Source of the DNA: a virus
Taxonomy: Duplodnaviria; Heunggongvirae; Uroviricota; Caudoviricetes
Length of the DNA: 37,224 nucleotides
Strand: one strand, 5' to 3'
Virus record (IMG/VR): IMGVR_UViG_2512047041_000009
Coordinates: 1 to 37,224 of that record
A program made the position numbers. Of this stretch, positions 18,001-24,000 are shown piece by piece (position 1 is the stretch's first letter; each line of letters starts with the position of its first letter).

Positions 18001-21000
18001 CCGGACTGCCAAATGGCTGCCACCCCTCCTTCAGTTTTTGTGTCAGTCGTTTCGCAAGGTCTGACGGCGATGCCGCCCTGACCACGTCATAGTGTTTAAA
18101 TGCCATGAATCCTCCCGGCCGGGATAATATTGTGAGTAAAATAAGGAGCGGGCTGAAGTCCGGAAGTTACAGGACAATGGCAGAAGAGAGACGACAGCCC
18201 GCAATTCGAAAAAGACCGCGCAGTTGCGCAGCCTTATGAATTCTGGTTAAAATCCATTCGATTATAAAAATGTATATCTCATGCTGTTGCCCGAACCCAC
18301 TCGGGCTTTTTTTTGCCCACAAGAAAGCCCCTCCGGAGAGGGGCTAAAGCCGCGTATCTGTATCATCATGCACATGATGCCGGGTGCCTCCCGGTGAGTT
18401 CAGTATCAGCACCTGAACCCGCACAGAAAGGATAAGGGTCGGTGACAAAACACCAGTTGCTGATTGCCCCTCCGCACAGGGGGATTCACCATGCCAGTTT
18501 CTTTTAACAAATTCGCCGCTAACAGGACAACATTCCGCTTTCTGAGTTGTGAGGAATTTAACACTTCACACCTGTGTGCATTTTCTACAGGCTGATCCCA
18601 GCACCACAATACATCGCAGGCAACAGAAGCCAAATGCCCCACCACAGAAAAAACATGCAATTATGATTATTGTTTACTGCAAAGATGTAGAATCACGGTT
18701 TAAAATCCAGCACTCCATTGTGAAATACTTTATATACTTCCGGAGACGGCGGAACTGGTATATCAGCATGCTTCACCGCATTCATCGCTTCACGACATAA
18801 ATCGGGGTCTCCACCTTCTCTTTTAACCTGTAGCAGAAGACCATTCGGGGCCATATACATTCTCAGTGAACACTCTTTTCCTGAATACTTACTCGCATCC
18901 TTTAACTGTTCTTCTATGGCTTTCCTGACCTGAATGGCATACTGCCTGATTTCTTCACTGGCATCAGGGGTACGTTCCGATGAGCTCAAATTTTGCGACT
19001 TTATTAATTTATCTGAGTGATACAGAGAAGCATCATAATTATTTGTCGATACATCTTTTGTGCAGCCAGTTGTCAGACTGGCTAATATCAAAACAAGAAC
19101 TGGTACAGCACGGCAATACATTTATCCATCTCCATATTAACAAGAACAATTATCTATAAAATATAGTAAATATGCGGGATCCGGGAGGACTTGTAACTAT
19201 CATCTCCGGATCAGCATGTAGTTTTTATTTTTCCGGATGATATATGCCGCAATAATACCTCTGCATACAGATGCCTGCAAATATCTGCGAAGCATCCGGC
19301 GAGAATAAACAAGGAAGTCTGAGGCTATCTTATATGATAGCCTGTTGCTCAAAAGACAATGATTCACTCATCAGAACCAACAACGCATAATGCAGATAAT
19401 GGACCGCCATCGAGGACTCGAACCCCGCGCAGCCAGCTTCGAAGGCTGGCGCTCTATCCCGATGAGCTAATGGCGGTATGTGATATGGTGGCCCTTGCTG
19501 GATTTGAACCAGCGACCTGGCGATTATGAGTCGCTCGCTCTCACCACTGAGCTAAAGGGCCGGGCGCAGGATAATAACGGTACGTAACTAATTCTGCAAT
19601 ATCATCCGTTCTGACTGACTAAATCCTGAACTTCCCGAACCGTCTGCTCAAAACGTTCAGTCTCCAGCTCAACGCCTGTAGCACGACGGCCCAGTGCCAG
19701 TGCAGCTTTAACTGTTGAACCTGACCCCATAAAAAAATCTGCAACCAGGTCACCCGGACGACTGCTTGCGCTGATTATCTGCTGCAGCATTTCTGCCGGT
19801 TTTTCGCACGGATGTTTCCCGGGATAGAACTGCACCGGTTTATGCGTCCAGACATCGGTATACGGCACCTGCGCCGTCACGCCAAAATACCGCCGCAGTC
19901 GGCATTCACAACCACCAGCGCATTTAACGTTCAGGCACAAAAAAACCCGCTCGACGGCGGGTTTAAGCTGTGTGACGAAGTAACCACTCTTAACAGCATA
20001 ACCAATTTTTTACGTACGTAAACTACTAAATGATATTTGTGAGAATGCCACCGAGTGTTCAAAACACCACCACAAATACATAAGAAAACTTCAACAAATA
20101 ACCAATGAATAATTTCCGATGTTATTTTTAGGTTGTTTAAATTAAGCCAAAAAATTATAGGGCACTTATAAATAAGTGTCATTAATATAAATTAGCTAAT
20201 AGATTTATTTTTGTTCAAACAAGAGCCATGAATAGGATTAGATAGAAAAGGTTCAGATAAAAATAGAGATCTACGTCACAAATTAAATGAGAAACTAAAA
20301 CTTACATCTTGAAATAATCACATTGATTAGATGAATATTTATCGCGCAGTGACATCATTTTTTTATAATAGTTCAAAAAAAGGGCGTACAATGAAAAAAT
20401 TAACAGTGGCAATTTCTGCTGTAGCTGCATCAGTACTGATGGCGATGTCTGCTCAGGCAGCTGAAATTTATAATAAAGACAGTAACAAGCTGGATCTATA
20501 CGGGAAAGTTAATGCCAAGCACTACTTCTCCTCTAATGATGCAGATGATGGTGATACTACTTATGCTCGTCTTGGCTTCAAAGGTGAAACCCAAATCAAC
20601 GATCAACTGACTGGTTTCGGTCAGTGGGAATATGACTTCAAAGGCAACCGTGCTGAATCTCAAGGTTCTTCCAAAGACAAAACCCGTCTTGCATTTGCAG
20701 GCCTGAAATTTGGTGATTACGGCTCAATCGATTACGGCCGTAACTTCGGTGTAGCATACGACATCGGTGCGTGGACTGACGTCCTGCCAGAATTCGGTGG
20801 TGACACTTGGACTCAAACCGACGTGTTCATGACTCAACGTGCAACTGGTGTTGCAACTTATCGTAACAACGACTTCTTTGGTCTGGTCGATGGCCTGAAC
20901 TTTGCTGCTCAGTATCAGGGTAAAAATGACCGCACTGACGTAGCTGAAGCCAATGGTGATGGTTTCGGTTTCTCCACTACTTATGAGTATGAAGGATTCG

Positions 21001-24000
21001 GCGTGGGTGCAACCTATGCTAAATCAGATCGCACTGACGGTCAGGTCGCCTATGGTAAGAGCAAATTCAATGCCTCCGGCAAAAATGCGGAAGTATGGGC
21101 TGCAGGCCTGAAATATGATGCGAACAATATCTATCTGGCTACCACATATTCTGAAACTCAGAATATGACCGTTTTTGGTAATAACCATATTGCAAACAAA
21201 GCACAAAACTTTGAAGCAGTAGCACAATATCAGTTTGACTTCGGTCTGCGCCCATCTGTTGCTTACCTTCAGTCAAAAGGTAAAGACCTTGGTGTTCATG
21301 GTGACCGAGACTTAGTCAAGTATGTCGATGTCGGTGCTACTTACTACTTTAATAAAAACATGTCCACTTTTGTTGATTACAAAATCAACTTAATTGACGA
21401 TAGTAAGTTTACCAAAACAGCTGGTATTGATACCGACGACATCGTCGCTGTAGGTCTGGTTTATCAGTTCTAATCTGACTTACGAAAAAGATATGTTGCG
21501 GGAGGCTTTGCCTCCGCAACATATAAGTGGAGCCCTCAAGCCACTTCCTTTAGAAGCACTACCTTGCTTCTTACTATATAAACCTTCTGTTATATATTAC
21601 CCTTTATTTGGGGGCGTTTCCACGCCCCATTTTTAATAACTTTTAGTAAACAATTGCATATCAATTAGAATTATTAGCAACGATATCCATATCTAACCGG
21701 ATATCTAATGCCATTAACATCCCTTCAATTATGCCCTCAGCCTTCTGTAACCTTTTCCCGATATAACCATCCGAGCAGCAATGCTTACTTGCCAGTGACA
21801 TGAATGTCATACCACATACATAATAATCTACTAATAAATCGTGTAAATCGCTGTTGTTCTTTTTCAGACGGGCCATGCACCCGCAAATGATCATCGCGTC
21901 ATCGTCACAACATTGCGGGCGAGATTTTACTTTTGAAGGAATTAATCCCTTAAAACCGGCAGCAATGGACGACCAGGTCACATCCTCATGATTATTTGCC
22001 GCCCATGCTCCCCAGCGTTCGAGAACCATCTGAATATCACGCATCAACTTTCTCCACAAAATCAGGACAGCACACCAATCGCCAGCGCGCGATCGATAAA
22101 ACGAAATATCAGCTCCAGTTGGGAACCATACTTCTCTTCAAATGCCACGGTATCCGCATGCAGTCCGTCATGGTGTTTTCTGCACAAAGGCAACACAAAA
22201 AGGTCATGCGCTTTTGTACCCATTCCACCCTGACCATGACCAATCAGGTGATGAGGATCGTCGGCTGGCTTACCACAACATGCACACGGCTGCGTCTTAA
22301 CCCAGCGCGTGTACTTTTCATTAACCCAGCGACGACGTTTGGGGCGTAACATAAAAGACTCCGGCGACTCCGGATCCACTTTCAGCGCCAGCACCTTTTT
22401 CGCCTTATCCCGGATGATGCTGGTGGCAGGAACCGAAGGCACAAGGTCACTTTCCCGGGTGACAGACGGCACAACAGGCTTCGGTAATCTCAGTGCCTTA
22501 CGGGCTGCACTTTCCGGTAAGGCATCCGCCAGGTCATTACGAACCAGCCACCAGCACAGTTCCGGCATTGTCACAACGTGGCTGTCATCAAAACCGAGAT
22601 CACGACGGACTACGGACAACACCCAGCGGGCACAGTTATCCGTTGCCATTGATTCCAGACGTTCCGTGAACTGATCGCGAAGCAGGTTATCGCAGTGCCA
22701 GCACAGACGGATTGCGCCCGGCGCGTGTCGCATTGTGGTCATGTTCTCGCTGTGCCATCCGGAATGAGGCCACTGGCAGCCTTTTTCACGAAGTAACCAG
22801 CTCTCAAGGCATTCCACGCCACCAGCACGACGGATCACCGCCTCATGGCGGAACACGGCCCGAACGGCAGGATCATCCGCCAGCGGTTGTGATGCTGCCG
22901 GAACGGCACCACTGGCAAAAGATGAATAACGTTCCGGCTCAGGCTCCAGCAGGACACGCCCCTGCATAAACAGGGGCATCAGCTCTGAACCGGGTCTGAA
23001 CAAGACGATCCCCATACGCGGGGCAATTTCAGGGGTCAGCAGTGCTCTCACGGTCACCTCAGCGAACGGTATTGCATGAACGCAGGAGAAAAAAATTCAG
23101 CCATCACGCAGTAAACTCCTTCACCAGCGTTTCAAACTGGCTTACCTGTCCTTCCAGTTCCGCCACGCAATCCACCAGCTCATCCACCGCCTTTTGTGTG
23201 CGGTGTTTTGCCTGCAGCAGATCACGAAGCGCCGGAGTAAGCTGCTTGCGGAGCGTATCTTTTTTCACGCTCGTTTTTTCCATCTGTTCAGCACAACGAA
23301 GCATCTCCTGCGCCTGCCGACGAAGTTGTTCCGGTGAAACAGTGATTGTTCTGTTGTTCAAAATAAACGCTCCGTTTTACTGCCCGACATGCGGTTATTG
23401 CTGTATCTGCGCGGATTGCCCGGCGTCATGGGTGTGGAAAGAACCCGGGCACTCTCCTGGTCCACAGGCAGAAAATGTCCGTTATGAAAACGCCGGTAAA
23501 TGGTCCCGAGTGTGCCATTACGCTGTTTCGTGATGTTGATTTCTGCTATGCCTCTGGCCTGTGTATCCGGGTTATACACCTCATCCCTGTAAAGCATCAG
23601 AATGATGTCGGCATCAGCCTCTATTTCCCCGGAGTTTTTCAGGTCTGAGTTCATGGGACGTTTATTGGGTCTGGATTCCACGCCTCGGGAGAGCTGGCTC
23701 AGAGCAATCAGCGGGAAACCGCCGGATTTTGCCAGGCTTTTAAGTCCCTTTGAGATTTCCCCCACAGCAAGGTCGTGACGCCCCGTGCTGCGGGTTTTAA
23801 TCAGACCGAGGTAATCGACCACCACCAGCGCCGTTTCCGGGTGTTTCATCCGGTGGTGCTTCGTGGTTGCACATATCTCATCAATGGTCAGGTTTGCCTG
23901 ATCCACCATCCAGATATTACGCCCCGTCATTCGTCCCACGCCCTGCGAGAAACGCGCCCAGTCTTCATCTTCAAAACGGGCAACAGACTTAAGACGGGAT

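Follow-up and report, generated by a model that had tools for sequence, protein, structure and literature searches.

An intact NmpC/Lc-type porin cassette between the Q gene and the late promoter of a lambdoid Escherichia coli prophage

Introduction

Porins that are brought into Escherichia coli by lambdoid phages are old acquaintances. The biology of Lc of phage PA-2, of nmpC of prophage DLP12 and of the small RNA (sRNA) IpeX entered the literature between the 1970s and the 2000s. We here describe a further porin gene of this kind, together with its control regions. It lies in a stretch of 37,224 nucleotides, called the window in the following, which comprises positions 1 to 37,224 of the IMG/VR virus record IMGVR_UViG_2512047041_000009 (Caudoviricetes) and is 100% identical to the prophage at mlrA/yehV of E. 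coli strain N32, an isolate from cerebrospinal fluid (CSF). A sequence-only reading of the window had taken the porin for a possibly osmoregulated gene that is crossed by an antisense late transcript. Its observations are partly confirmed, and its interpretation is partly supported.

PA-2 uses OmpC as its receptor. In its lysogens the phage-encoded, NmpC-like porin Lc is expressed, and the 3' untranslated region (3' UTR) of the porin gene, ipeX, lowers OmpC. The locus described here resembles this system, as judged by description.

DLP12 shows the same order of Q (there called QuuD), a porin gene on the opposite strand, the late promoter PR' with a hairpin, and the late genes. The porin proteins are 90% identical, the upstream regions and the 3' UTRs about 88–96%. 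The differences between the intact DLP12-type NmpC and the window porin cluster in two loop-rich segments, residues ~181–230 and ~335–350. In K-12, nmpC is silent owing to an insertion element: IS5 sits ~58 bp before the stop codon. The window porin, in contrast, is free of IS5, as had correctly been noticed before. The two prophages also differ behind the PR' hairpin, where DLP12 continues directly with the holin gene, whereas in the window the hairpin is followed by a fragment of a methylase gene, by tRNAs and by genes for a TolA-like protein and a NanS-p-like esterase.

Two further systems help to understand the locus. The OmpD porin of Salmonella is chromosomal and shares 79% of its residues with the window porin. 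The late control of the Shiga toxin (Stx) phages 933W and Sp5 has a Q that is 81% identical and a homologous PR', initial transcribed sequence and first hairpin; ileZ/argN-type tRNAs and a NanS-p-like esterase follow downstream as they do here. In 933W, however, PR' overlaps the end of Q, while in the window a porin cassette of 1.6 kb lies between them; the window Q stops ~24 codons short of the end of Q933W, and stx genes are absent from the window.

The porin gene

The porin gene occupies positions 20391–21473 of the plus strand and encodes 360 amino acids. The open reading frame (ORF), if delimited mechanically, starts at 20331 and ends at 21473, but the biologically sensible start is the ATG at 20391 (MKKLTV...), which has a Shine-Dalgarno sequence AGGG 7 nt on its 5' side. 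The first 23 residues (20391–20459) are a predicted signal peptide with cleavage between AQA and AE (AQA-AEIYNK).

The gene is intact. No insertion sequence is found inside it, and it agrees with its reference families and structures, which is why we consider it complete: the Pfam family Porin_1 (PF00267) is covered from profile position 1 to 337 of 337 (E=6.7e-151), the phage protein family phrog_410 aligns over residues 1–360 of 360, the NCBIfam subfamily model 'porin OmpC' yields 522 bits at a cut-off of 484, and the mature protein (residues 24–360) aligns with few gaps over the whole length of the solved structures of OmpC (2xe2), OmpF and PhoE. The claim of a complete OmpC-family porin with signal peptide thus holds. 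The motif PEFGGD of loop 3, the constriction loop, and the C-terminal YQF (...GLVYQF) are both present, as seen in the sequence and in the alignment to 2xe2. Sec signal peptide, PEFGG motif and C-terminal aromatic residue, i.e., the marks of a general porin, are therefore all there. The alignment to OmpC, OmpF and PhoE points to a trimer of 16-stranded β-barrels that would form a diffusion pore.

At the level of sequence, the family assignment is unambiguous. With the intact NmpC of the DLP12 type the protein shares 90% of its residues, with OmpD of Salmonella arizonae 79%. Outside Escherichia, the species-representative genomes that were scanned gave chromosomal OmpD-type porins of Salmonella, Citrobacter and Enterobacter as the nearest relatives (75–80%), while porins of the OmpC/OmpF/PhoE class reached ~62–64%. 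It accordingly stands nearer to NmpC and OmpD than to the classical porins and is assigned to the NmpC/Lc/OmpD subfamily. Every feature of the NmpC/Lc family that a sequence can display is found in the cassette; an OmpR-type promoter, for which the upstream DNA was likewise searched, is not (see below).

The cassette and its place in the late region

The gene is part of a transferable unit, 20062–21639 on the plus strand, that comprises the upstream region, the coding sequence, the 3' UTR and a terminator. Its limits are given by copies at the yedK locus. They match exactly positions 20062–21639 (query 99–1676), contain neither Q nor the PR' block, and lose homology just past the T-run of the terminator.

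E. coli 2A and 14EC029 carry this second, older copy of the unit in the yedK-ybcM region, at a DLP12-like remnant beside yedK. In 14EC029 and in the records that share its partial match, only the AT-rich upstream DNA and ~40 bp from the start of the porin gene are left, unannotated. Such a remnant (query 99–468, 81–84% identity) appears in 6 rows among the matches listed and may explain part of the class with 80–90% identity, which counts 2137 records among the E. coli matches.

The composition of the unit is distinct. The intergenic region of 368 bp between PR' and the porin ATG (20023–20390) has a GC content of 27.7%, which agrees well with the ~400 bp of ~30% GC noted earlier; the coding sequence has 43.8% and the window as a whole 50.8%. 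Distinct composition, a promoter (a predicted one) and a terminator of its own, and occurrence at another locus characterise the unit as a 'moron'.

On its other side the unit borders on Q. The gene of this antiterminator, 21661–22044 on the minus strand, encodes 127 amino acids of the QuuD type (Pfam Phage_antitermQ, PF06530, 7.7e-54). The protein is 81% identical to Q of the Stx phage 933W over 120 amino acids and distantly related to the solved Q21 structures. In 933W, the annotated pR', qut and the first terminator come straight after Q. The block TTTACG-N16-TATCAT ... TAAGAGTGGTTAC ... CCCGCCGATGCGCGGGTTTTTTT of 933W aligns, however, to the window minus strand at 20022–19936, i.e., beyond the porin, where the counterpart reads TTTACG-N16-TATGCT ... 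TAAGAGTGGTTAC ... CCCGCCGTCGAGCGGGTTTTTTT. By this homology, PR' of the window is placed at 20022–19995 of the minus strand, with the -35 box TTTACG at 20022–20017, a spacer of 16 nt, the -10 box TATGCT at 20000–19995 and a predicted transcription start site (TSS) at ~19988. Just 3' of it, a terminator-like hairpin, AAACCCGCCGTCGAGCGGGTTT followed by T7, spans 19936–19964 of the same strand. This hairpin is also the left edge of the homology to DLP12 and Lambda_4C10, in both of which the holin gene starts ~130 nt past it. The initial-transcript motif TAAGAGTGGTTAC occurs once in the window, and in every porin-bearing locus it is located on that side of the porin which is away from Q. Judged by its sequence elements, a Q gene with a cognate PR', an initial transcribed region and a downstream terminator, the locus would have the outfit of lambdoid late control.

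The pR' annotation of 933W is borne out by experiment. Sy et al. mapped the PR' TSS of Sp5 and Sp15 by differential RNA sequencing (dRNA-seq) and Term-seq to 258 nt upstream of the 3' end of tR' (PMC7547250). In the 933W stretch, the same 258 nt separate the expected pR' start (~2877) from the point where the second annotated terminator ends (~2620).

The arrangement Q - porin - PR' is also seen in Lambda_4C10, ev099 and Kati, which have been deposited as phage genomes, and a position between Q and the lysis or late genes, on the opposite strand, is typical of the NmpC/Lc subfamily. Given the yedK copies and the homologies on the Q side and on the PR' side, the porin unit is best described as an insertion between Q and PR' that has taken the place of the final ~24 codons in a Q of the 933W type.

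The phage genes around the porin all lie on the minus strand: those of Q, a DUF968 protein, a DnaB-type helicase, the truncated methylase, two tRNAs, the TolA-like protein and the SASA/NanS-p-like esterase. That the porin stands on the strand opposite the late genes had been seen correctly. The consequence that had been drawn from it, an antisense late transcription across the porin, is not borne out, since PR' lies on the far side of the cassette from Q and fires leftward, away from it. The late transcript should thus not run antisense across the porin, and only transcripts of the early right operon that read on past Q could cross its coding sequence.

The slot behind Q is not reserved for porins. 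In Lambda_2E9 (2302–2826), a related Q (85% nucleotide identity) is followed by a Blc lipocalin gene on the opposite strand and no porin. As Blc here takes the place of the porin, the slot accepts different outer-membrane cargo. As a parallel for a cassette between Q and PR', Lambda_2E9 had to be dismissed: its PR'-like promoter and terminator abut Q, so that late transcription would run across the Blc gene. Nor is the porin cargo confined to lambdoid phages, as the P1-like plasmid prophage P7 (AF503408.1) has at 25399–25799 a gene annotated as 'NmpC precursor' with 72% DNA identity to the 3' part of the porin gene.

Distribution

The cassette is an ordinary one. Its NmpC/Lc type is already known to be carried by many lambda-like prophages of E. 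coli. The porin region of 1.7 kb is 98.3% identical over 1697 bp to that of 19 sequenced lambdoid phages, among them Lambda_4C10, 4A7, ev017 and Perceval, in which the porin is annotated as OmpD, NmpC or OmpC. Among 5426 complete E. coli genomes, 3225 matched the cassette, and 2465 did so with a coverage of at least 80%. There are 726 public contigs that carry the exact protein, where it is named NmpC or OmpC; its cluster includes a member called 'outer membrane porin protein LC'.

With the biology known and the cassette present in nearly half of the complete E. coli genomes, another intact copy adds little. Nothing at the locus is new in kind, and the added value is a corrected anatomy only: the cassette is located between Q and PR', the limits previously given to the gene leave out the terminator and an sRNA-bearing 3' UTR, and the likely promoter is ompD-like with a CRP-type site. 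Such a map shows which bases matter for reporter or deletion work.

The predicted porin promoter

Eight E. coli cassettes, up to ~25% diverged in the distal AT-rich DNA, were aligned. The ~140 bp next to the ATG are almost invariant in all of them. Within this segment lies the likeliest porin promoter (20309–20345, plus strand): the -35 box TTGAAA at 20309–20314, a spacer of 18 nt, the -10 box GAATAT at 20333–20338 and a predicted TSS at ~20345, which leaves a 5' UTR of ~46 nt. The combination TTGAAA-18-GAATAT is the same in the eight cassettes. It aligns with the Salmonella ompD promoter, TTGAAC-18-TAAAAA, and its blocks are common to the upstream regions of chromosomal ompD genes.

The Salmonella promoter itself is located by the 5' UTR of ompD, which measures 69 nt in S. 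Typhimurium (PMC3333887). When this length is applied to S. enterica arizonae, the ATG at 2986 (coordinates of the arizonae stretch) leads to a TSS at ~2917, and this position sits 3' of TTGAAC (2881–2886), an 18-nt spacer and TAAAAA (2905–2910). Most likely, then, the porin promoter is the homologue of the ompD promoter of Salmonella. Both have a TTGAA(C/A) -35 box, the 18-nt spacer, an A/T-rich -10 box and, upstream, a sequence of the form xGxGA-N6-TCACA. They differ in the length of the 5' UTR, 69 nt versus a predicted ~46 nt, and in the position of the CRP-like site, which is ~9 bp farther upstream in ompD.

In the window, this site reads AGAGATCTACGTCACA (20265–20280, plus strand), agrees with the consensus TGTGA-N6-TCACA in 8 of 10 positions and, counted from the predicted TSS, has its centre at about -72.5. 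All aligned cassettes have kept it; the ompD counterpart, GGCGATCTTGATCACA, is centred at about -81.5. It is a candidate because it is conserved and helically phased, not because of its score. A control of ompD by cAMP-CRP was reportedly described by Santiviago and colleagues in 2003, and the early work on 'protein 2' of PA-2 is said to have noticed catabolite repression.

A generic promoter scan, which demanded at least 9 of 12 consensus positions, found no promoter on the plus strand 5' of the porin gene; the ompD-like promoter with its 8/12 was not flagged. The only strong match of the scan in the AT-rich DNA was a near-consensus sigma70 site on the minus strand that points toward PR', ATGACA-17-TATAAT at 20182–20154 (11/12). 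It overlaps a 7-2-7 palindrome, CACTTAT-AA-ATAAGTG. Its -10 box is kept in most cassettes, its -35 box is not conserved across them, and it is probably spurious.

The 3' UTR and the terminators

The porin gene is followed by a conserved, structured 3' UTR (21474–21640, plus strand), the counterpart of the region of DLP12 and PA-2 from which a 167-nt sRNA, IpeX, has been reported. It is 96% identical to the nmpC-quuD intergenic region of DLP12, folds better than its shuffled versions (z=-6.2) and is near-invariant across eight cassettes, including E. albertii and copies without Q. Covariation is of little help: there is one compensatory pair, one-sided changes fit either strand, and the sequences are too similar. 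In the RefSeq annotation of MG1655 no ipeX feature is listed, and Rfam has no IpeX model, whence the 3' UTR is matched only by its homology to DLP12. An ipeX-type 3' UTR between stop codon and terminator is nevertheless what the NmpC/Lc subfamily has, and by homology it may act as a regulator in the window, too. In the literature, the IpeX region is the part that lowers OmpC and OmpF of the host, and PA-2 is named as its carrier (PMC10690425).

The intrinsic terminator of the porin is GGGGCGTTTCCACGCCCC followed by T5 at 21611–21634 of the plus strand, 138–161 nt past the stop codon. The gene thus has the terminator of its own that the sequence-only reading had claimed, but that reading ended the locus before it and missed the IpeX-type 3' UTR.

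A second hairpin, 15 bp with a bulge and followed by CTTTTT, is seen on the minus strand at 21493–21526. On the plus strand the same bases form the first stem of the 3' UTR; the T-run follows on the minus strand only. As judged from sequence and folding, the hairpin may also stop transcription that leaves Q. Inside the Q coding region, in sense direction, there is a promoter-like site, TTTACA-16-TATTAT (10/12; 21820–21847, minus strand), and a similar one is found in the related Q of Lambda_2E9. If the site were active, an RNA antisense to the porin 3' UTR would be made, which would end at the 21526–21493 hairpin.

Proposed function

Taken together, the locus is in all likelihood a standard porin conversion cassette ('moron') of the NmpC/Lc type in a lambdoid prophage, inserted between Q and PR' and transcribed on its own. 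We put the probability of this reading at roughly 0.8. Being inserted in reverse orientation between Q and PR', the cassette would be transcribed independently in the lysogen and would not be crossed by the Q-dependent late transcript. The ompD-like promoter would produce a joint porin-IpeX transcript and probably need CRP, which the CRP-like site could recruit in a class-I position. The AT-rich control DNA is probably subject to H-NS or to temperature, in view of its GC content of 28% and the induction of the CFT073 homologues at 37 °C. By analogy to Lc of PA-2 and NmpC of DLP12, the lysogen would gain an additional trimeric porin for general diffusion with variant surface loops, and the IpeX part of the transcript would, according to the literature, lower OmpC and OmpF of the host. 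Porin and IpeX together would change the permeability of the cell and the receptors that it offers to other phages and to colicins. An exclusion of superinfecting phages by the window prophage may be expected from this.

That the gene is of the lysogenic-conversion type, as had been proposed before, is supported by Lc and NmpC and by the expression of homologues in lysogens. An nmpC homologue is strongly expressed in CFT073 at 37 °C, as RNA and as protein (PMC12890032), and among the strain-specific transcripts of Nissle 1917 an 'ompD' homologue ranks first (PMC11610980). Phage-borne porins, which alter the receptors of the lysogen and the passage through its outer membrane, are relevant to phage therapy, to the sensitivity to colicins, to the entry of antibiotics and to antigenic variation.

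Several points weigh against this view. The PR' homologue shares no more than 8 of 12 positions with the sigma70 consensus, and the generic scan passed over it. The first hairpin behind it is evidently read through in Stx phages, where tR' is 258 nt downstream, and its role here is uncertain. The CRP-like site, taken alone, is not significant, as 16% of shuffled sequences score equally. All TSSs of the window are predictions; the tail-fibre and receptor genes lie outside it. Finally, details on Lc, nmpC, ipeX and essDp (see below) are in part taken from secondary citations.

Of course, an intact gene may be a silent one. The porin could be quiescent in its host, the AT-rich DNA being silenced by H-NS, and contribute nothing under ordinary conditions, like nmpC of laboratory strains. 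The 27.7% GC of the upstream DNA and the lack of a strong consensus promoter on the plus strand would fit, and in the title of Prilipov 1998, as quoted in citing papers, nmpC of E. coli B appears as a 'quiescent porin gene'. The strong expression of homologues in CFT073, at the levels of RNA and protein, and in Nissle 1917 speaks against it, however. Also, the loop segments of the coding region are less conserved than the promoter-proximal 140 bp and the 3' UTR, which argues for function. We therefore regard quiescence as unlikely, and the independently transcribed conversion cassette is kept as the working model.

Alternative views of regulation

Back to back with the predicted porin promoter there is a sigmaE-like promoter on the minus strand (20342–20374), the homologue of 'essDp' of DLP12: GAACTA at 20374–20369, a 16-nt spacer, GTCACT at 20353–20348 and +1 at ~20342. 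The start is derived from the lysis-operon regulatory region of DLP12 that was cloned as '-121 to +650', in the numbering of Rueggeberg 2015, with the forward primer Pdlp12Fw (PMC7918800). This primer maps to the minus strand at 20444–20463, within the signal-peptide codons of the porin, and thereby sets +1 to ~20342. Seen from the porin ATG the promoter is on the left, and it is directed away from the porin. The two starts, ~20345 on the plus and ~20342 on the minus strand, are so close that each promoter has its boxes in the leader of the other. One could imagine a mutually exclusive switch in which sigmaE, under envelope stress, stops the initiation at the porin promoter while priming the late leader, and in which, in addition, a rare A-to-T change that creates a TATAAT at 20364 gives the lineage, including the CSF isolate, an extra, activator-independent porin promoter. 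We consider this combined proposal speculative and improbable.

The same TATAAT had figured in the sequence-only reading. According to it, the porin is transcribed from the TATAAT at 20364, possibly osmoregulated via OmpR boxes like ompC and ompF, and covered by a Q-dependent late transcript that yields antisense RNA. A perfect TATAAT is indeed there, at 20364–20369, once on the plus strand of the upstream region, and the porin indeed opposes Q and the lysis genes. The hexamer is, however, what chance provides in such DNA: 71% of the shuffles that preserve dinucleotides contain at least one copy. It has no usable -35 box within 16–18 bp on its 5' side, and it falls into the predicted 5' UTR of the porin and the spacer of the minus-strand sigmaE-like promoter. 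Moreover, AATAAT is the conserved form here, and TATAAT a rare allele of it. All seven other aligned cassettes have AATAAT, and of the 2344 E. coli records that match, no more than 15 carry the exact 81-bp allele of the window with its TATAAT.

The OmpR boxes fare no better. Six reference boxes (C1–C3 of ompC, F1–F3 of ompF) were confirmed to lie in tandem in MG1655, and every 20-mer of the upstream region was scored against them. The best likeness on the plus strand is 14/20 to ompC C1 at 20301–20320, which 77% of the shuffles reach; on the minus strand it is 15/20 to ompC C3, which 20% of them equal. The stretch at 20301–20320 is invariant among the cassettes, which might be taken as a sign of function, yet the reason for its conservation is that the -35 region of the ompD-type promoter falls there. 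This scoring revealed no tandem array of OmpR sites, let alone the three sites of an ompC- or ompF-type promoter, and an Rfam scan no micF-like partner. As PR' moreover lies beyond the cassette, an OmpR-dependent porin under antisense late RNA is very unlikely.

That PR' directly adjoins Q, antisense to the 3' UTR, with the 21526–21493 hairpin as tR', the 20022–19936 block as a relic and late transcripts crossing the porin, is highly improbable: a weak candidate is there (TGGAAA-17-TAATAT at 21622–21594 of the minus strand, followed by a -10-like TATAGT, as read by eye), the minus-strand hairpin with its T-run is strong, and the late promoter does abut or overlap the end of Q in Lambda_2E9 and 933W, but this sole candidate reaches only 8/12 and has no homology to any characterised PR', while the 933W-homologous block, which we prefer, is conserved in all porin-bearing phages and is, in DLP12 and Lambda_4C10, the immediate upstream neighbour of the holin leader, and the yedK copies, which hold the whole 3' UTR without Q, assign this region to the porin unit.

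Neighbouring genes

Beyond PR' the window departs from DLP12. An N-terminally truncated N6/N4 DNA methylase fragment, recognised by Pfam (19602–19940, minus strand), is joined directly to the PR' hairpin and followed, on the same strand, by the genes of tRNA-Ile2/Met(CAT) (19486–19561) and tRNA-Arg (19400–19476). Many Stx2 phages have a full-length methylase and then tRNAs upstream of stx2. With a truncated methylase fused to the PR' hairpin here and the full-length methylase-tRNA series there, the late leader looks like a recombinant of a DLP12-type Q-porin-PR' block and a late region such as Stx phages have, with the junction at ~19940.

Two Rfam matches, both to known sRNAs of prophages of enterohaemorrhagic E. 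coli (EHEC), are found between the TolA-like gene and the NanS-p-like esterase gene, in a prophage without stx genes. STnc100 matches at 18315–18523 of the minus strand (132 bits, E=6.5e-30), and AsxR/AgvB at 18259–18313 of the plus strand, AsxR with 63 bits, which is just its gathering score.

At a distance from the late region, an IS4 transposase gene (~30859–32205) lies beside the immunity region with its LexA-family repressor and a helix-turn-helix (HTH) protein; because IS4 has inserted there, the prophage may be impaired in its regulation.

The TolA-like ORF, 18693–19121 on the minus strand, encodes 142 amino acids and is labelled 'TolA' in RefSeq. By eye its hydrophobic N-terminus with a cysteine is lipoprotein-like; the C-terminal domain of TolA follows (PF06519, 3.8e-23). 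Towards colicins that depend on TolA, or towards filamentous phages, the product could act as a decoy or a blocker.

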